This document shows, one piece after another, positions 3,861-44,030 of a stretch of 64,000 bases of DNA. The stretch is taken from positions 8,896 to 72,895 of the forward strand of contig CALVJT010000021.1 of NCBI GenBank assembly GCA_944332315.1, read 5' to 3'. Within the stretch, counting starts at the first letter, position 1; each line of letters starts with the position of its first letter. The notes under the pieces are model-generated. The model searched no databases, was not told the origin of the DNA, and saw only the letters and a list, made by a program, of their open reading frames with translations. This DNA is from an uncultured Clostridia bacterium. GTDB lineage: Bacteria > Bacillota > Clostridia > Christensenellales > UBA1242. The translations under genes and the position numbers were made by a program.

Positions 3861-4592
3861 ATGAGAATAAAAGCCGTTATTGAGTACGATGGTGGGAACT
3901 ATGCTGGTTGGCAGGAACAATTTGGAAAGTCTACTATACAGGGAGAGTTGCAAAGGGCATTACTAGATTTAACTGGACAAAATATAATTTTGCATGCTAG
4001 TGGTCGCACAGATGCTGGAGTGAGTGCAAAAAATCAAGTAGTTCATTTTGATATTGATACAAACTTAAAAATGTATAATTTGATGATGGCGCTCAATATG
4101 CGTTTGCCAGATGATATTAGAATAAAAAAAATGGAGCAGGTAAGTGCAGATTTTCATGCTAGATACAGTGCAAAAAAGAAAATATATACATATCGTATGT
4201 ATGCCTCTTCTATAGAAAGTCCACTTAGGCGCAAAACGCACCTTCAGGTATGGCCAAATTTAGATTTTAATTTAATGCAAGAAGCTTGTAGATATTTTGT
4301 GGGTACGCACGATTTTATTGGTTTTAGCCACCAAAACCCCCAAATAGTATCTACTATTAGAACAATATATTCTTGTGAAATGTTAAAACGGGATGATGAT
4401 ATAATTATTAAAATTTGTGGAAATGGCTTTTTACACAATATGGTAAGAATTATCTGTGGAACCATTCTAAAAGTGGGGCAAAGAAAAATTAAGTTATCTG
4501 ATTTACCTGATATCATAAACAGTAAAGATAGAAAGCGAGCTGGGCAAACTTTGCCCGCCTTTGCATTGACGCTTGAAAACATTGAATATTGA
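3861..4592 (+). CDS. truA: tRNA pseudouridine(38-40) synthase TruA
   Basis: MRIKAVIEYDGGNYAGWQ...ILHASGRTDAGVSA (catalytic Asp motif). The start was moved to ATG 3861, which has TGAGGT upstream. Confidence 0.9.
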   Translation: MRIKAVIEYDGGNYAGWQEQFGKSTIQGELQRALLDLTGQNIILHASGRTDAGVSAKNQVVHFDIDTNLKMYNLMMALNMRLPDDIRIKKMEQVSADFHARYSAKKKIYTYRMYASSIESPLRRKTHLQVWPNLDFNLMQEACRYFVGTHDFIGFSHQNPQIVSTIRTIYSCEMLKRDDDIIIKICGNGFLHNMVRIICGTILKVGQRKIKLSDLPDIINSKDRKRAGQTLPAFALTLENIEY

Positions 4593-5690: not shown

Positions 5691-5790
5691 GGTTCTTTAT
5701 TATTTATGGTGTATATAAAGTTAAGGGTTCAAACCTTTGCTAAATATTTTCTGCTAAATATTTAACTAACCCCACGAATATTATAGAAAC
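5691..5790 (+). repeat. intergenic repeat family R1, copy 1 (~100 nt)
   Basis: GGTTCTTTATTATTTATGG...GGTTCAAACCTTTGCTAAA...GCTAAATATTTAACTAACCCCACGAATATTATAGAAAC. It aligns by eye with 16279-16378, 43933-44030, 46440-46532 (reverse) and more weakly with 20646-20731. Confidence 0.75.
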
Positions 5791-11950: not shown

Positions 11951-12754
11951 ATGGAATGGTATATGTTTGTGGTGCTGGGGCTCGAAGTTTTGGCATCATA
12001 CTTTTTTGGCAATATAAGTGTTGCTAGAATAATTTCCAAAATAAAAAAGGGTGATATTACAAAAGTGGGCAGTGGCAACCCAGGGTCGACCAATATGCTG
12101 AGGGCGTATGGAGCAAAACTTGGCTTTTTGACATTGCTACTAGATATTATAAAAGGTGTTTTGCCCGCTTTGATGGGGTACCTAACTTTTATGTTTGTAG
12201 ATGACGGCAACTTTATGCTTGTGGGCTTATATGCCTGTGGGCTAGGTGCCGTTGTGGGACATATGTTTCCTGTGTGTTATAAATTTAAGGGCGGTAAAGG
12301 GGTAGCCACCACACTAGGGGTGTTTGCCGTTGCCGACCCGCTGATAATGTTGTTTGTATTTGTAGGCGCGTTTATATATGTAATATTTTTTGAATATGTG
12401 TCAGTGGCATCACTACTGCTTGTAACAGCAATGGCAATAGTAGAGGTTTATAAAATACCCGAAGGTTTGCCAAGTGGGGTATCACTCACCATTCGAGTGC
12501 TTATATTTGTACTGTTTACACTTGTGTGGTTTGCGCATAGACAAAACATACAACGCCTGCTTGTAGGCAAAGAAAATAAAGCCAACCTTAAAAAAGCCTT
12601 GCGCAAAATGCTAAAACAAGAGAAAAAAGAGCAAAAACAACAAAAGAAAATTGAACATAAAGAATTAAAAGCAATTAAAAAGCAAAAGAAAAAGCTCAAA
12701 AAGCATAGAGCCTCATTGATTGTATCTCATGAATATAAGGGCATAAATCATTAA
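11951..12754 (+). CDS. plsY: glycerol-3-phosphate acyltransferase PlsY with a ~65-aa Lys-rich C-terminal extension
   Basis: GSGNPGSTN and the FKGGKGVAT motifs with multiple TM helices. The tail KENKANLKKALRKMLKQEKKEQKQQKKIEHKELKAIKKQKKKLKKH lies beyond the usual ~200-aa PlsY core. Confidence 0.85.
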   Translation: MEWYMFVVLGLEVLASYFFGNISVARIISKIKKGDITKVGSGNPGSTNMLRAYGAKLGFLTLLLDIIKGVLPALMGYLTFMFVDDGNFMLVGLYACGLGAVVGHMFPVCYKFKGGKGVATTLGVFAVADPLIMLFVFVGAFIYVIFFEYVSVASLLLVTAMAIVEVYKIPEGLPSGVSLTIRVLIFVLFTLVWFAHRQNIQRLLVGKENKANLKKALRKMLKQEKKEQKQQKKIEHKELKAIKKQKKKLKKHRASLIVSHEYKGINH

Positions 12755-12803
12755 AGGAGCAATTAAAAACATAAAATTAAAGTTAAATATACTCACAAAA
12801 TAG

Positions 12804-12833
12804 TTGATTAAAAATAAAATTTTATGTTATACT
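12804..12833 (+). promoter_or_regulatory. sigma-A-type promoter upstream of the poly-G leader and surface-protein gene
   Basis: TTGATT (12804-12809), 18-nt spacer, TGtTATACT (12825-12833). Confidence 0.5.
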
Positions 12834-12893
12834 CTATTAAATAATACAAACGAAAAAGGAGAACAAAGTATGTTTAATTTTAATAAAATGGTA

Positions 12894-12907
12894 GGGGGGG
12901 GGGGGGG
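12894..12907 (+). repeat. homopolymeric G14 tract inside the 5' coding region of the surface-protein gene (candidate slipped-strand switch)
   Basis: 14 consecutive G counted directly. SD AAGGAG (12856-12861) and ATG 12870 lie upstream. The ATG frame stops at TAG 12912-12914. The large ORF is in the +1 frame. Confidence 0.9.
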
Positions 12908-12960
12908 TAGGTAGTAGAGATAGTACTACTAAAAACTCTAGCGAATCTACAAATAAAAGT

Positions 12961-15900
12961 TTGCCAAATGTAAATGCGGGGTACAATATTAATGAATCGG
13001 GGGATATTAGTACTTATAAAAATCAAAGAGCGGGCAAACTTTTATGCGAGCAATTAAACATAAAAACTAGCAACTCTAAAACACAAGATACGCATACAAA
13101 ATCTTATATTACAAGCGCAAAGCGTATAAAAAGCAATAAAAATAGAAATAGTAATATAGGTGATAGTATGCAAAATAGAATAAATAATAAAGATACCAAA
13201 AATTTAATAAATAATCGAGCAACAAATAAAGCAAGGTATGCAAATATAAAAGTTGCACCGCTGCAAAAATCTGCACTACAAAGAGTAATGTGGCTTTTGG
13301 CATTTATAACTTTGTTCGTATTGGCTCTGCAACCCGTGCTGCAAAATAGGGGCAATATAGCACAGGCAGGTGGACCAACCAGCGGAACAGGTTATACCAA
13401 TGCTCCTGCTACACAGGTAGGCGGTGGTAAAGCGTTGTTTATAGCCAACAATTCAACAGACAGTTCGGAACAAAGCTATAAATCATTAGGAATAAATCCA
13501 AATGTTTTATTTGATTTATTCGAAAAAATAAATGATGAAAGTGTTTGGGGGAATAAAGAAGTATTAAGTAGTGGAGTTACCTATTTAAGCGCTAAAGATT
13601 TTGGACAATATGATCCAAACACAAACAATGCGCAAATAATACTAAAGCTATTAGGTAGCACAAGCACCACTGACAATGATGTAGATGATGCGGCAAACCA
13701 ATACTGGCAAGTTGTATACCGCAGTGTGAGCAAGGATGAGGATGTACTAACACTATATATGACGCAACCATATAAAACTTCGGTTTTTGAAACAAATTAT
13801 TACGAAGGCAATTATAGCGTTAGCAATATAAGAACGGCAATACAAAACACATATTCAAAAATGGCAGAAACATACTCGGTACTAGATGAATATGTAGTAG
13901 CGCCATACCAACTATCCTCAAGTACAGCATCCGAAATACAAAATTCAAAAAATGCAGATTTACAAGGTAAAACAGACTTTTTGAACCTAGGTGGCTGGCA
14001 AAGCAGTGCATACCAAACATCTGCAAACAGCAATGGTGAATATTATAATGGCACAGGATTTAATAGCGGAACAACTACTTATGGAGACCATGCTTTAGGC
14101 TCAAGTGGTTACGGCAGTGATACAAATACAGAATTGGGCACAGTTTATAACTTAGGCAATGGGCTTGATGGTTTAAGCGTGAAGTACAAGGATCGTGGCT
14201 ATGAATGGGAAAGTGAATTTACAAGCGCATACAATGATAAGATGTGGCTACCAAGTGCATTTGAGGTGCTCTACACAGGATACGCGGGGGAATCACATAG
14301 CACATTACCTGGCACAGAAAGGGGATATGATGGAGATACTAATACTGAATCGTATGTAGATGATCCTTCTAGCGCAGGTGCAACACTTAATGTCCGTAGT
14401 CGTTCAGGGCTCTGGGAACTAAATGGTTACGATAGAGCTTGGGGTGATACATCCGTGGTGGGGGACTGGGCGTGGCTGCGTTCCGGCGTTTCCGGTTACA
14501 ATAGTTGCGCGTGCTCTATCGACTGGCGTGGTTCCTACAGCCCTTACGCTGTCAACGGTAATAACGGGTTGCGGGTTGCGCTCCATCTCAACCTTAAGGA
14601 ACTTGCAAACGCCGTGTTTGCAAGTGTATCTGCTGACGCGTCAGCGGGCAGCGTTGGCTCCCCAAGCGTAAGCTTCCCCGATAGGGGATGGGAGCCAACC
14701 ATCGAAAGTAAATATTCCAATTTAATAATAAAAAACTCTTCGGAATCTTCGATTTCTGCAACATATTCTTTTAATACTAATAAAAAAATGACCTCTTTTA
14801 CACTCAATGGAGAGCCAGTTACAGTGAGTGGCAATTCTGGTAGAGGGTCAGTTAGTGGGGTATGCGATTATAGTTATCAAGTGGGTAGCGGAAATGTAGT
14901 AATTACAATCAGCAATGCCTCGCAAAATGTAAATATTGAGGCACAAATTGATGATGCGGGTTATGCATTGACATTTGATTATGAAACAAATGGTGGAACT
15001 AGCACAACTGCTACAAACGGCATATATGTACAAGGGGCAACCGTTGACCTATCAAATATGCAAGCCGACAAAGGTAATGGCTGGGAATTTGAGGGCTGGA
15101 GTGAAAACCCAAATGCACACAGTGGCAGCATAACAACTTTTCAAATGCCGGGGCAGGCAACCACATTGTATGCAATATTTTCAAAAACCTTAACCGCAAG
15201 TTTTTATCAAATAAACACATCTAGTGCAGAGACTAGGGATGTGACAATTTATAATACAGCTACAAATGGCAATATCATTGATATTCCAGTGGTAAACACA
15301 TCGCTATCCATAGCGGGTGCAACTAATATAACAGCAGTTGGATGGGTAAAAGATGATTCACTCGAAGATACAACTGGTGGTATTACGATAAGTGAGGATG
15401 TAGCGTACTATGCGCGGGTTAATTACACTATAACTATCACATACAACGGCAATGGTGGCAGTGTAAGTCAAGCAAGCAGTACGGGCACAGTTACTATGAC
15501 TGCAAATGGACAAGCAACTGGAGCCACTCCAACAAATGCGCAGATACCTCTTGCAAACAACACAACACCACGACCAAACTACACATTTGTTGGTTGGAAC
15601 TCAAATAGCGGAGGAACAGGCACATCATACACTGCAGGGGAAAGCTACAGCTTTAGTGCAAGTACAACGCTTTATGCTGTGTGGGATAAAACCACAACTA
15701 CAGCTCAACTGACAATAACGCTAGCAACACCGAGCGAGGCTGGAGTTATAATTTATCTTGTGCAAGACAACAAGGTGGCAAAGCAGTTTGTAGTGATGGG
15801 GGAAACAAAAACTATAAGTGTAGAACTAACCAAGGGAGCGGAATACAAAATAATAGTATCTAAGCCATATACATGGCAAGTAGAGTACACAGGTAATGGC

Positions 15901-16014
15901 AGTGTACAAAACGATAACTATGTATTCACGGCATCAAGCGCAGATGTTAGCGAGACTCAGTACACAATTACTGTAAGCGGTGGCAGTATACCAAACAATT
16001 GGTGGATAGTATAA
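12961..16014 (+). CDS. large membrane-anchored surface protein with Listeria-Bacteroides (Flg_new-type) repeats; the true 5' end is uncertain (ATG 12870 via frameshift at the G tract, or internal ATG 13168)
   Basis: One TM/signal-anchor helix (VMWLLAFITLFVLALQPVL). There is a WLRS...GLRVALHLNL lectin-like module. Repeats such as YTLTFDYETNGGT...GWEFEGWSENPN...TLYAIF and ITYNGNGGS...YTFVGWNSNSGGTG...TLYAVW are present. The track start is a TTG without an SD. The frame is open back to 12895. Confidence 0.8.
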   Translation: MPNVNAGYNINESGDISTYKNQRAGKLLCEQLNIKTSNSKTQDTHTKSYITSAKRIKSNKNRNSNIGDSMQNRINNKDTKNLINNRATNKARYANIKVAPLQKSALQRVMWLLAFITLFVLALQPVLQNRGNIAQAGGPTSGTGYTNAPATQVGGGKALFIANNSTDSSEQSYKSLGINPNVLFDLFEKINDESVWGNKEVLSSGVTYLSAKDFGQYDPNTNNAQIILKLLGSTSTTDNDVDDAANQYWQVVYRSVSKDEDVLTLYMTQPYKTSVFETNYYEGNYSVSNIRTAIQNTYSKMAETYSVLDEYVVAPYQLSSSTASEIQNSKNADLQGKTDFLNLGGWQSSAYQTSANSNGEYYNGTGFNSGTTTYGDHALGSSGYGSDTNTELGTVYNLGNGLDGLSVKYKDRGYEWESEFTSAYNDKMWLPSAFEVLYTGYAGESHSTLPGTERGYDGDTNTESYVDDPSSAGATLNVRSRSGLWELNGYDRAWGDTSVVGDWAWLRSGVSGYNSCACSIDWRGSYSPYAVNGNNGLRVALHLNLKELANAVFASVSADASAGSVGSPSVSFPDRGWEPTIESKYSNLIIKNSSESSISATYSFNTNKKMTSFTLNGEPVTVSGNSGRGSVSGVCDYSYQVGSGNVVITISNASQNVNIEAQIDDAGYALTFDYETNGGTSTTATNGIYVQGATVDLSNMQADKGNGWEFEGWSENPNAHSGSITTFQMPGQATTLYAIFSKTLTASFYQINTSSAETRDVTIYNTATNGNIIDIPVVNTSLSIAGATNITAVGWVKDDSLEDTTGGITISEDVAYYARVNYTITITYNGNGGSVSQASSTGTVTMTANGQATGATPTNAQIPLANNTTPRPNYTFVGWNSNSGGTGTSYTAGESYSFSASTTLYAVWDKTTTTAQLTITLATPSEAGVIIYLVQDNKVAKQFVVMGETKTISVELTKGAEYKIIVSKPYTWQVEYTGNGSVQNDNYVFTASSADVSETQYTITVSGGSIPNNWWIV

Positions 16015-16233
16015 ATCTACAAAAGGTTGTATTATAAAATAGCATTAATAAATAAGTTAAATACATTTTTCAAGTGTAGGGGTTAGCATTTGAGAACATA
16101 AAACTTGTTCATAATGTAAATCAAAGGGGAAGGGGAACTATATTTTATAGCAGAGAGATTTATAAAATGAGATTTTAGTCTACGATATGATTCCTCTTAT
16201 AAAAATTATTAGTATTAAATGAAAAAAGAGTTT

Positions 16234-16268
16234 AAGACTACAAAGGGTGTATCCTTTGTAGTCTTTTT
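16234..16268 (+). terminator. rho-independent terminator, 220 nt after the surface-protein stop
   Basis: 13-bp stem AAGACTACAAAGG / CCTTTGTAGTCTT, loop GTGTAT, then TTTTT. Confidence 0.8.
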
Positions 16269-16278
16269 ATATATTCTT

Positions 16279-16378
16279 GTTCTTAATTTTAGTGGTGGAA
16301 TAGTATGTTATTAATTTAGATTTTTGCTAAACTCTTTATTCTAAATATTTAACTAACCCTATTGAATATAATAGAACC
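16279..16378 (+). repeat. intergenic repeat family R1, copy 2
   Basis: GTTCTTAATTTTAGTGGTGG...TTTTTGCTAAACTCTTTATTCTAAATATTTAACTAACCCTATTGAATATAATAGAAC. Confidence 0.65.
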
Positions 16379-16440
16379 TATAATATTCTTTATAATATGG
16401 GCTTAATAAGTTAGACATTAAATAGTTAAATTATTTTATG

Positions 16441-16518
16441 CAAAATGTTGGGTTATTGGCATAAATAATAGTTAAAGCTTAACTAAATTGCACTAACGGC
16501 CTAACTTGATTATAGAGT
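16441..16518 (+). repeat. intergenic repeat family R2, copy 2
   Basis: CAAAATGTTGGGTTATTGGCATAAATAATAG...CTTGATTATAGAGT. It has the same end blocks as 3444-3508 with a longer middle. Confidence 0.55.
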
Positions 16519-16666
16519 TTTTGGTTATCTATAAAATTTAGGTGTGTAGTAGGTACATAAAAGCAATTATAGTTATTATAAGCATTTAATTATCTTACAT
16601 CTTTATAGTGGTAATATTAATTTTATATCCTCATTAAAACAATTATAATCTATTTTTGTGTTTTAA

Positions 16667-16695
16667 TCATAAAGCCAAAAAGGCGTGAATATAAT
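16667..16695 (+). promoter_or_regulatory. candidate mother-cell (sigma-E-like) promoter of spoIVA
   Basis: TCATAAA, 14 nt, AATATAAT. The same 7-14-8 arrangement (TCATAAC-N14-AATATAAT) precedes spoIIIAA at 39798-39826. Confidence 0.4.
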
Positions 16696-16718
16696 GTTAT
16701 AAATCTAGGAGGAGTTTA

Positions 16719-18188
16719 ATGGAAAACAGCATTTACCAAGATATAGCACAGCGCACTAATGGCGATATTTATTTAGGCGTTGTGGGGCCTGTTAGGGTAG
16801 GAAAATCTACCTTTATAACAAATTTTATGGAAAAGTTAGTTATTCCCAACATACAAGATAGCAATGTTAAAATTAGGGCGGTGGACGAACTGCCTCAATC
16901 TGCCGATGGCAAGACTATAATGACTACGCAACCCAAGTTTGTGCCTAGCGAGGCGGTTAGCATAAACATTGATAACATTGCTATGAATGTGCGCCTTATA
17001 GACTGCGTGGGCTACTTTGTTGCTGGTGCTTTGGGGAGCAGTGAGGGAGAAAAACCTAGGCTTGTAAAGACGCCGTGGAGTGATGAGGATATGCCTTTAG
17101 AGCGCGCTGCCGAAATAGGGACTGAAAAGGTTATAAAAGAGCACTCCACTGTAGGCATTGTTATGACTGCCGATGGCAGTTTTGGCGAACTACCTAGGGA
17201 TGCTTTTATCGAGGGGGAGGAGCGCGTTATTAATGAGCTAAAGGAAATTAATAAGCCATTTGTTGTGATACTAAATAGTGCGTATCCAAAATCGCCCGAT
17301 ACAATAGAGCTTGCGGATAATTTAACGCAAAAGTACGGGGTAAAGGTTATGGCTGTGGATGTATCTAATTTAAGCGAGGATAACATCAACGAGATGTTTG
17401 CCAACCTTTTGCGCGAATTTCCTATTGTTGCAATTGAGGTGGCTATGCCAAAGTGGATGCAGGCACTGCCATTTGAGCATCCGCTTATTGAAAGAGTTGT
17501 AGATGAATTTAGGCAACACGCCGAAAATCTTTATAAAATAGGCGACCTTAATAAAGGGCAATTATTTATAGAATCGGCTGATTTTGAACCTATAAATGCC
17601 TCGCTTGTAAAACTGGGCGAGGGCAAAATTGAGTTTGAAATTAAAACAAAACCTCAACTTTTCTATAAAGTTTTAAGCCAAGAGTGCGATATGAACATAG
17701 AGGATGACTACCATCTAATGAGCCAAATAAAAGACCTTGCTTTTGCTAAAAAAGAATACGATAAACTTAAAGATGCTTTGCAATCTGTGGAGGAAACGGG
17801 CTACGGTGTTGTTAACCCTAAACTTACTGATATGGTATTAGATGAGCCTGTTGTTGTAAAGCAAGGCAACCGATATGGGGTAAAACTGCACGCAAGTGCA
17901 CCTAGTTTGCATTTAATGAAGGTGGATATCGAAACCGATTTATCTCCTTTAGTAGGCACCGAGGACCAAACAAACGATTTTGTAAAGTACTTGCAAAGCG
18001 AGTTTGAAAACAACCCGCAATCTTTGTGGGATACCAATGTGTTTGGGCGCTCTTTAAGTGACCTTATCGAGGATGGTATGAAATCTAAACTAAATGGTAT
18101 GCCTGTTGATGCTCAACGCAAAATGCGCCGTACGCTAACAAAAATTGTAAACGAGGGCAAGGGTGGCATTATTTGCATATTGCTATAA
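16719..18188 (+). CDS. spoIVA: stage IV sporulation protein A (spore-coat basement-layer ATPase)
   Basis: 489 aa. N-terminus YQDIAQRTNGDIYLGVVGPVRVGKSTFI (Walker A) and C-terminus ...NEGKGGIICILL are highly characteristic of SpoIVA. Confidence 0.92.
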   Translation: MENSIYQDIAQRTNGDIYLGVVGPVRVGKSTFITNFMEKLVIPNIQDSNVKIRAVDELPQSADGKTIMTTQPKFVPSEAVSINIDNIAMNVRLIDCVGYFVAGALGSSEGEKPRLVKTPWSDEDMPLERAAEIGTEKVIKEHSTVGIVMTADGSFGELPRDAFIEGEERVINELKEINKPFVVILNSAYPKSPDTIELADNLTQKYGVKVMAVDVSNLSEDNINEMFANLLREFPIVAIEVAMPKWMQALPFEHPLIERVVDEFRQHAENLYKIGDLNKGQLFIESADFEPINASLVKLGEGKIEFEIKTKPQLFYKVLSQECDMNIEDDYHLMSQIKDLAFAKKEYDKLKDALQSVEETGYGVVNPKLTDMVLDEPVVVKQGNRYGVKLHASAPSLHLMKVDIETDLSPLVGTEDQTNDFVKYLQSEFENNPQSLWDTNVFGRSLSDLIEDGMKSKLNGMPVDAQRKMRRTLTKIVNEGKGGIICILL

Positions 18189-43932: not shown

Positions 43933-44030
43933 GGTTCTTTATTAATTAGGGGTTTGTAGTTATAGGTTCAAATTTTTGCTAAACTCTTTTTGCTTAATAT
44001 TTAACTAACTCTATGAATATTATGATATTA
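43933..44030 (+). repeat. intergenic repeat family R1, copy 3
   Basis: GGTTCTTTATTAATTAGGGG...GGTTCAAATTTTTGCTAAACTCTTTTTGCTTAATATTTAACTAACTCTATGAATATTATGATATT. Confidence 0.75.

Follow-up and report, generated by a model that had tools for sequence, protein, structure and literature searches.

The window analysed here is a 64 kb stretch of DNA with a GC content of 33.8% from an uncultured Clostridia bacterium. It contains a gene for a large and putatively surface-exposed protein that carries 14 consecutive G residues (G14) close to its 5' end, a candidate site of translational phase variation. The features of the gene are listed below by coordinates and strand.

12804..12833, +: promoter-like site of the sigma-A type with an extended -10 element (TTGATT at 12804-12809, a spacer of 18 nucleotides (nt) and TGtTATACT), read from the sequence
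12856..12861, +: Shine-Dalgarno (SD) sequence AAGGAG, 8 nt 5' of the start codon, read from the sequence
12870..12893, +: ATG 12870 and its leader, eight codons including the start (atg ttt aat ttt aat aaa atg gta), MFNFNKMV
12894..12907, +: G14 homopolymer, putatively hypermutable tract, 24 nt after ATG 12870, read from the sequence
12912..12914, +: TAG stop of the leader frame at G14, reached after ggt agg; product MFNFNKMVGGGGGR
12895..13281, +: coding region of a K/N/S/T-rich N-terminal extension in the +1 frame, with a semi-conserved K-Q-D-T-H-T motif
12961..16014, +: annotated open reading frame (ORF) of 1,017 amino acids (aa) with a TTG start (P0001), comprising DUF6273, Flg_new and Flg_new_2 repeats and a C-terminal beta-rich domain (Pfam, AlphaFold2 (AF2) model)
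13282..13347, +: hydrophobic signal or anchor segment RVMWLLAFITLFVLALQPVLQN, then NIAQA/GG (hydropathy scan, AF2 helix)
16234..16265, +: terminator-like intrinsic hairpin of 14 bp followed by a T-rich tail, 3' of the ORF

The putative switch locus from promoter to tract

The original prediction, made from the letters of the window, had described a promoter, an SD sequence, ATG 12870, seven further codons and the G14 tract in this order, with the leader frame closed at 12912-12914 and a large ORF in the +1 frame from 12895. All of these elements are present, and the stop and the frame were both confirmed. The +1 frame opens just past TAG 12892-12894 and comprises 1,039 codons up to its stop at 16012-16014. 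Removal of one G yields MFNFNKMVGGGGVGSRDSTTKNSS..., as had been predicted for the ON state, and tracts of 13 or 16 G create a single ORF of about 1,047 codons; the frame of this fusion is found in a homologous locus with G13 (L071; loci and proteins are denoted by L and P numbers). The gene looks monocistronic because a strong terminator-like hairpin follows it at 16234-16265.

A promoter scan recovers the site at 12804-12833, including the TG ahead of the -10 element. The assignment is made because the site is conserved in homologous loci and not because of the match alone. In most loci a promoter of the form TTGAT(A/T/C)-17/18-TGnTA..(A/C)T lies 33-84 nt 5' of the SD-linked ATG, as exemplified by L008, L079, L078, L002, L004, L007, L020, L072-76 and L031, and 12804-12833 is presumably used as a promoter. 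The homologous loci also carry AAGGAG or GGAGG at equal spacing from the start, and the leader pattern M-x-[FLM]-K-x-x-K-K-[VIL] is kept in the subfamily (alignment A2).

The G14 tract is the sole run of G or C longer than 7 in the window, where runs of at least 14 G are expected at 7e-6 per 64 kb strand. Between 12895 and 13290 the ORF frame contains no stop, against 11 and 23 in the remaining two frames, and the probability of 91 stop-free codons by chance is 4e-4, which bears out the coding constraint that had been claimed for this region. A chance origin of tract and open frame can be excluded. GGG accounts for 19.6% of the Gly codons in the ORFs of the window and four in succession have a probability of about 0.0015; a reading of the tract as a conserved Gly4 peptide is ruled out by this codon usage, by lengths that are not multiples of three and by out-of-frame states at 16/28 loci. 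A poly-G read artefact of two-colour sequencing chemistry was also ruled out, as the tract occupies the homologous position in independent assemblies of different studies with coherent flanks on both sides.

The tract as a feature of a gene family

A protein search returned 30 relatives with 28-46% identity in addition to the annotated protein, and a full search of 1.84 billion representatives with a hidden Markov model (HMM) yielded no more than 356 members of the family at E<=1e-3. The DNA examined comprised 47 loci from approximately ten metagenome-assembled genomes (MAGs) of uncultured Clostridia and 12 loci from ENA gut assemblies. Approximately 30 homologous genes share a common layout of extended -10 promoter, SD sequence, ATG, 2-12 leader codons, a tract of G9-G17 and a long ORF. 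These homologues have 30-46% protein identity and carry the G run at the equivalent position on the coding strand, at distances of 2-38 nt from an upstream ATG and 9-38 nt from the SD-linked ATG; the commonest length is G14. The ORFs past the tracts comprise 430-1,034 codons, and in all loci the 31-138 codons from tract to hydrophobic segment form an open frame.

At the protein level the tract is visible in the called N-termini of many relatives, which read M-x(0-8)-GGGG. Examples are P0004 (MFKNNKIVGGGGVGSS), P0005 (MLMKIRKKVGGGGVFS), P0008 (MRMKKNKMLGGGGVDS), P0012 (MLKFKKKVGGGGVDR) and P0013 (MKFAQKSGGGGGYN), and several relatives have MGGGGYNSYPQL in common. A run of three to five Gly within the first 17 or so residues (M-x(0-12)-GGG(G)(G)) occurs in 36 of the 193 proteins retrieved, and GGGG occurs 14 times in the remaining ~126,000 residues. 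In the DNA this Gly run is always an uninterrupted stretch of 9-17 pure G on the coding strand, the interrupted tracts of L078 and L072 aside. The tract is kept beyond coding need, being pure G, of lengths that are not multiples of three and built from a minor Gly codon.

Many contigs break off at the tract, several of them at precisely this point (for instance L018, which starts with G17, L040 and L024), and long heterogeneous homopolymers are expected to break assembly. The L024 contig opens with C50 and then C8 beside a family gene (1-62), probably an artefact of sequencing or assembly at a tract.

Among metagenome contigs of the Joint Genome Institute (JGI) only distant homologues with 23-31% identity were found, usable only as an outgroup; none of them has a G tract adjoining the family gene, and one unrelated G9 occurs (L054). 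The absence of the tract from these distant homologues points to a clade-specific acquisition. Tract-free paralogues with an ordinary short signal peptide occur in the same MAGs (L012, L022, L023). In L011 an out-of-frame G14 (4129-4142) lies inside the ectodomain-coding region, around codon 85 past an ordinary signal peptide (MKNTRLKRFYVVF...), and the L011 paralogue L012 shares this signal peptide and is tract-free. By this comparison the L011 tract is an independent gain, and the tract has accordingly arisen repeatedly within one particular clade and been retained there. The related genomes carry at least 4-5 tract-bearing copies per MAG, and 4-8 dispersed copies.

G tracts were also noticed in other contexts. 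In L029 a G12 (67-78) directly follows ATGCCTATTTT and precedes a hydrophobic small ORF of 76 codons in another frame, a second, unrelated gene type with a 5' G tract in MAG CAZSGM. In L054 (JGI metagenome contig) a lipoprotein-like gene is preceded by a consensus promoter (TTGACA-18 nt-TATAAT) whose spacer contains the G9 (438-446), a candidate transcriptional phase-variation site. In L073, L074 and L075 a GC-rich intergenic element with four hairpins (~870-1010) is located between a gene of 199-223 aa and a minus-strand tRNA. It has a G tract of its own in the loop of ggttggtcgt...acgacaaaccaacc, with G12, G13 and G9 in the three samples, and found no family match in Rfam. L003 beyond 3659 looks related to this element.

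Frame states and tract-length variation

Frame states were scored relative to the SD-linked start of each locus. The consensus sequence is in frame at 12 loci and out of frame at 16.

In frame (12): L071 G13, L079 G13, L002 G14, L004 G12, L020 G14, L080 G14, L010 G16, L027a G14, L027b G13, L028 G9, L031 G14, L078 G8-T-G4
Out of frame (16): window G14, L001 G14, L008 G14, L007 G15, L081 G15, L082 G15, L072, L073/74, L075, L076, L077, L016 G13, L029 G14, L041 G15, L044 G12, L011

L071 is the homologue with the leader most like that of the window. It has G13 in frame (MFKNNKIVGGGGVGSS, reading GGGGVGSS), and its DNA reads ...aaaggagcgaagaaaATGtttaagaacaataaaatagtaG13taggtagtag..., in which the post-tract taggtagtag is the same as in the window. 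L080 and L081 are assemblies of one strain from two ENA samples with adjacent accession numbers (ERZ27286952, ERZ27286953). Their only difference in 4,698 aligned bases is the tract, with G14 in frame in L080 and G15 out of frame in L081. The L080 product is called with 624 aa beginning MKHLTKWGGGGYNSY, and that of L081 only from a Met within the hydrophobic segment, with 565 aa. L073 and L074 have G13 and L075 has G14, with upstream DNA that is 99.8% identical; L079 (G13, in frame) and L008 (G14, out of frame) are 96% identical in their upstream DNA. Five protein clusters at 90% identity contain nested N-terminal variants (624/618/565, 607/601/548, 642/582, 617/610 and 750/744 aa), and these length variants match differing frame states. 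Across the loci compared, the conserved position, variable length and mixed frame states together are the comparative signature of contingency loci.

Two tracts are interrupted, G8-T-G4 in L078 (1528-1540, in frame, a cluster of seven sequences) and G-T-G13 in L072 (1501-1515), and resemble forms of the switch that have become fully or partly stable. Such interruptions, like the internal tract of L011, are variants typical of contingency loci.

The MKHLTK subfamily (L072, L073, L075, L077) has aaATGtGTG(G)n at this point, which places start codons in all three frames beside the tract. One is the SD-linked ATG, another is an ATG 4 nt ahead of the tract, and the third is a GTG that begins 2 nt ahead of it and ends with the first G of the tract. 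Gene callers therefore find a 'start' at any tract length (P0010, P0027, P0028).

The internal start and its predicted hairpin

Two further features of the window lie between the tract and the hydrophobic segment.

13158..13170, +: internal SD sequence AGGTGAT (13158-13164) and ATG 13168 (residue M70 in the annotated ORF), 38 codons ahead of the hydrophobic segment
13092..13171, +: hairpin predicted in the mRNA, its arms at 13092-13112 and 13151-13171, with the His codon CAU (13093-13095) paired to the internal AUG and part of the SD sequence

The original prediction had noted M70 as the first in-frame ATG of the large ORF, with AGGTGA 4 nt upstream. The site is present and is conserved in the closest subfamily; its accessibility is put in doubt by the predicted hairpin, which masks it. 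In the long-extension subfamily (window, L071, L001, L008, L079) an in-frame ATG with an SD sequence lies 24-38 codons before the hydrophobic segment; AGGTGAT-3nt-ATG is identical in the window, L008 and L079, and the SD motifs of L071 and L001 are weaker. Because of this conservation the OFF state might not be absolute. An in-frame internal start with an SD sequence is missing from the short-extension subfamilies (MKYLTKW..., MNRKMIML... and others), where gene callers resort to a Met inside the hydrophobic segment (P0034, P0042, P0018).

The window RNA from 13080 to 13185 folds with a minimum free energy of -17.2 kcal/mol (z -3.7). One stretch of pairing joins GCAUAC (13092-13097) to GUAUGC (13166-13171), in which the AUG lies, and another joins CUUAUAUUAC to GUAAUAUAGG, in which part of the SD sequence lies. 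Helices anchored on CAU:AUG, counted by script, are predicted with 9 bp in L071 (CATACTACA / TGTAGTATG, z -2.8) and with 12 bp in L008 and L079 (z -4.7 and -3.5); two compensatory changes separate the helices of L071 and L008, and the helix is absent from L001. The masking hairpin is thus predicted in 4/5 loci with z from -2.8 to -4.7 and an AUG pair probability of 1.0. The semi-conserved peptide motif D-T-H-T / N-A-H-N is encoded where the 5' arm of this hairpin lies. RNAalifold, applied to the internal-start region as aligned by MAFFT, found no structure, with the arms out of register. Going by these predictions, which cover three independent lineages, the hairpin may keep the internal start closed once upstream translation aborts and so make the OFF state tight.

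A probable translational ON/OFF switch and its alternatives

The G14 tract is likely a slipped-strand (replication-slippage) switch in the 5' end of the surface-protein gene, which turns its translation ON and OFF by phase variation. This reading builds on the observed anatomy of the locus, the conservation of tract position and strand, the mixed frame states and the length differences between near-identical assemblies. Transcription would start from the extended -10 promoter at 12804-12833, and ribosomes would load at AAGGAG and ATG 12870 and read the eight leader codons into the tract. At 13 or 16 G the tract would encode Gly4-5 and translation would run for ~1,040 codons, giving a product with a disordered basic N-terminal extension, the hydrophobic signal or anchor segment, the DUF6273 ectodomain, the Flg_new repeats and the C-terminal beta domain. 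At 14 G, as assembled, translation would end at TAG 12912 after 14 codons and the gene would be OFF. The gain or loss of a single G at replication would flip this state in a heritable and reversible manner, and a clonal population would therefore always hold both expressers and non-expressers. Slippage in the organism of the window is itself inferred, as are its rate and reversibility. As related genomes carry several tract-bearing genes, their surface make-up could vary combinatorially, probably under selection by host immunity (immunoglobulin A, IgA) or by phages.

A possible but doubtful extension of this proposal holds that the tract is the master input of a two-tier translational device, present in 4-8 copies per genome in uncultured spore-forming gut Clostridia. 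In such a device only an in-frame leader would send ribosomes ~200 nt downstream, where they would melt the hairpin formed by the His codon CAU with the ancestral AUG and SD sequence. ON cells would then make the long form and possibly, through unmasked initiation, also the normal signal-peptide form, and in OFF cells the ancestral ribosome-binding site (RBS) would remain shut.

A number of points weigh against the switch. Promoter-like matches are, as a class, not enriched in the AT-rich DNA of the window (16 seen, 17.2 expected), and the match at 12804-12833 taken alone is not statistically distinctive. The product would be membrane-anchored or secreted, with its surface exposure suggested by one hydrophobic segment and the types of domain, and no anchoring motif was identified in the window protein. 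The internal SD and ATG at 13158-13170 could give a tract-independent shorter protein that retains the signal segment. The tract lengths are assembly consensus compared between samples, a scope beyond which heterogeneity within populations and reversibility lie, and an Illumina consensus at G13-G15 is error-prone, so that single ON/OFF calls, including the one-base difference between L080 and L081, could be technical. The original prediction had proposed a comparison of the locus across related genomes; homologous loci proved to be length-polymorphic with constant flanks, and no other assembly was found to contain the locus of the window itself, an exact DNA search of metagenome contigs with the tract and its 3' flank giving 0 matches.

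The concern over base calls is at its sharpest in a consensus error, by which the true tract would be G13, or the population mostly G13, the gene intact and its OFF state an assembly artefact. Artefacts of short reads at G tracts have been described and short-read platforms call long G runs badly (PMC9187656), related contigs break at the tract or carry artefacts such as the C50 at the start of L024, and L071, whose leader is the most similar among the homologues, has G13. Any single ON/OFF call, that of the window included, may indeed be one base wrong. However, G14 is in frame in L002, L020, L027a, L031 and L080 and out of frame in L001, L008 and L029, a distribution that no systematic +1 bias explains, and an error would alter the current state only and not the nature of the element; a consensus error is considered rather unlikely. 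It is improbable that the tract instead acts as an isoform switch, in which the internal SD and ATG 13168 would always be used and the tract would decide only on an extra cytoplasmic N-terminal extension of ~100 residues. Such a role would fit the conservation of AGGTGAT-3nt-ATG in the window, L008 and L079, with weaker SD sequences in L071 and L001, and the semi-conserved K-Q-D-T-H-T motif of the extension, but it accords poorly with the stable hairpin predicted over the internal AUG and part of its SD sequence in 4/5 loci and with the short-extension subfamilies that are without an in-frame internal start and SD sequence.

Long homopolymers can cause transcriptional slippage, which is mostly known for A/T runs, and the tract lies within the translated region. 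Slippage of RNA polymerase or ribosomal frameshifting on the G run could recode the message in a fixed fraction of transcripts or ribosomes, with no change in the DNA, and sustain a constitutive low-level expression. This is highly improbable given the DNA-level differences between near-identical assemblies and the fact that in-frame and out-of-frame genotypes are both common; recoding sites are normally fixed in length, whereas the tracts here range from G9 to G17, and neither a stimulatory structure directly downstream nor an Rfam match was found. Barely credible is a decaying pseudogene, in which a frameshift in a chance homopolymer would have inactivated a dispensable gene. The annotated start TTG 12961 is without an SD sequence and the leader ORF is cut short, as decay would predict, yet the downstream frame is intact over more than 1,030 codons, the tract position is conserved in ~30 loci at 30-46% protein identity with many of them in frame, and promoter, SD sequence and leader are conserved. 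An invertible promoter was rejected since no inverted repeat brackets 12804-12870, the pairs found lying inside the ORF or being short AT-rich matches. The gene was also rejected as the target of a diversity-generating retroelement (DGR): there is no direct repeat involving 14400-14650 and no template-like repeat in the window, reverse transcriptases not having been searched for.

The protein product and its variable ectodomain

P0001 gave no record in an exact look-up. It contains Flg_new (PF09479, the Listeria-Bacteroides repeat; 40.6 bits, cutoff 27), Flg_new_2 (25.3 bits, cutoff 23.6) and, at residues 416-544, DUF6273 (PF19789; 26.5 bits, cutoff 23.5), all from Pfam. In published models DUF6273 is a C-type-lectin-like ligand-binding domain (PMC10743442), and its known carriers include receptor-binding proteins of phages and an IgA protease from the gut (PMC10743442, PMC12402451). 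A C-type-lectin-like fold of the DUF6273 domain in the window is proposed because of these models of other DUF6273 proteins (PMC10743442). The AF2 model of the annotated ORF has a mean predicted local distance difference test (pLDDT) score of 61. Residues 1-101 are disordered (pLDDT <50), residues 103-131 form one long helix that spans the hydrophobic segment, and residues ~150-560 form a confident globular region; the ectodomain has pLDDT values of 70-96 and the C-terminal part is beta-rich. Foldseek with this model found no match in the PDB at E<=1e-3, only weak similarities to beta-sandwiches and pilins, and a PDB profile search with the window protein gave 0 matches. The consensus of the hydrophobic segment in the family is W-L-L-x-F...L-x-P...A-G-G (alignment A1).

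Alleles of the same locus differ chiefly in the ectodomain. In the pairs L073/L075 and L079/L008 the flanks are 96-100% identical and the 5' leader and extension and the 3' end 90-97% identical, whereas the ectodomain-coding centre is 38-70% identical between L073 (1800-2900) and L075 and 26-60% identical between L079 (1800-3700) and L008. This hypervariability has the appearance of a cassette-like exchange or of a lectin-like domain under strong diversifying selection. The diversity of the ectodomain looks allelic or recombinational, combined with ON/OFF switching.

Genomic surroundings

The neighbours of the gene are core housekeeping genes, with lepA, a hemN-like gene, der and plsY upstream and spoIVA, tkt, gyrB and gyrA downstream. 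Rfam matched nothing in the 5' region of the gene, and in the whole window it found only two tRNAs, both elsewhere. The family genes are single-gene insertions between differing housekeeping genes in different genomes: between tkt and gyrB in L078, upstream of hrcA in L073, between polA and a comM-like gene in L072, L080 and L081, and between plsY and spoIVA in the window (12754-16719). In the window tkt and gyrB adjoin, without the insertion seen in L078.

An intergenic repeat family of 85 nt, with 62-75% identity and the core TTTGCTAAA...TAAATATTTAACTAAC, occurs in the window at 5700-5784, 16287-16371 and 43939-44023. One copy lies just past the terminator of the surface-protein gene and another adjoins a tRNA.

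Comparison with known systems

Phase variation through homopolymers is textbook knowledge in Neisseria, Haemophilus, Campylobacter, Helicobacter and the mycoplasmas. In pilC of Neisseria, a surface adhesin gene, the poly-G occupies the part of the 5' coding region that encodes the signal peptide. The poly-G genes of Neisseria gonorrhoeae and N. meningitidis are similarly translational ON/OFF switches with paralogous copies that switch independently (PMC5320596, PMC5084427). They differ from the family described here in belonging to Gram-negative organisms, in encoding outer-membrane or pilus-associated proteins and in having neither a long N-terminal extension nor an internal masked RBS.

The poly-G phasome of Campylobacter jejuni resembles the present case in its AT-rich genome, in poly-G/C as the dominant simple sequence repeat (SSR), in its many loci and in the frameshift ON/OFF control of surface targets, and both phage and immune selection have been shown for its poly-G loci (PMC6321876, PMC8437040). 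C. jejuni, however, is a Gram-negative pathogen in which mostly glycosyltransferase and flagellar-modification genes are affected and the tracts usually lie anywhere in the ORF, whereas here one paralogous family of large surface proteins is concerned and the tract is fixed just past the start codon.

Clostridioides difficile is closer in lineage, as a spore-forming member of the Clostridia with ON/OFF control of surface or signalling proteins (cwpV, flgB, cmrRST, pdcB). There the switch is a site-specific inversion of a promoter or 5' untranslated region segment between inverted repeats, in contrast to a homopolymer inside an ORF (PMC11868660). A review of phase variation describes the cases in Clostridia as working through invertible DNA in C. 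difficile, and asks if the confinement of multi-locus phase-variable genomes to pathogens is real or a product of sampling bias (PMC11868660). The original prediction knew of no description of such a mechanism for a Listeria-Bacteroides-repeat surface protein in a spore-forming anaerobe. The literature searched contains no SSR example for Clostridia, which is not proof of absence.

The DGR-diversified DUF6273 receptor-binding proteins termed tentaclins share the ligand-binding domain family and an ectodomain that is highly variable between alleles (PMC10743442). They differ in their means of diversification; the 64 kb window shows no template repeat or near-repeat of the variable region, in an analysis that did not search for reverse transcriptases.

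A close parallel is Bifidobacterium breve UCC2003, in which the sortase-dependent pilus genes bbr_0113 and bbr_1889 vary through replication slippage of intragenic G tracts (PMC9187656). B. breve is likewise a Gram-positive gut commensal in which G10-G12 in the 5' part of the first gene splits a start/signal-peptide ORF from the surface-protein ORF, the tract length decides on their fusion, and the tracts are conserved across species of the genus. It differs in that it belongs to the Actinobacteria, has a high-GC genome in which G runs are less improbable, and encodes LPXTG pilins in sortase operons at one or two loci per genome. The present genes, by comparison, belong to Clostridia with 34% GC, encode DUF6273 and Flg_new proteins with no sortase motif and are monocistronic and dispersed in 4-8 copies. 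The tract precedes the signal segment here and follows it in B. breve.

Overall, these findings suggest that uncultured spore-forming gut commensals have a poly-G phasome, made up of a dispersed family of large paralogous lectin-like surface proteins whose genes each have their own tract and whose ectodomains diverge sharply between strains. A mechanism described chiefly in pathogens would thereby be extended to commensal gut Clostridia. Phase variation probably influences colonisation, recognition by IgA or susceptibility to phages in these Clostridia. The two-tier device and cassette-like hypervariable ectodomains, if true, would combine combinatorial ON/OFF switching with antigenic variation in a commensal, and the two-tier reading would then bear on the question of multi-locus phase-variable genomes outside pathogens (PMC11868660). 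On the practical side, gene callers systematically misplace the starts of the family genes at TTG, GTG or an internal Met, depending on tract length, and long G tracts are one reason for the fragmented assembly of these genomes. Measured against the known systems, the mechanism is classical, and the novelty lies in the lineage and protein family, in the dispersed multi-copy arrangement and in a hairpin that possibly masks the RBS.

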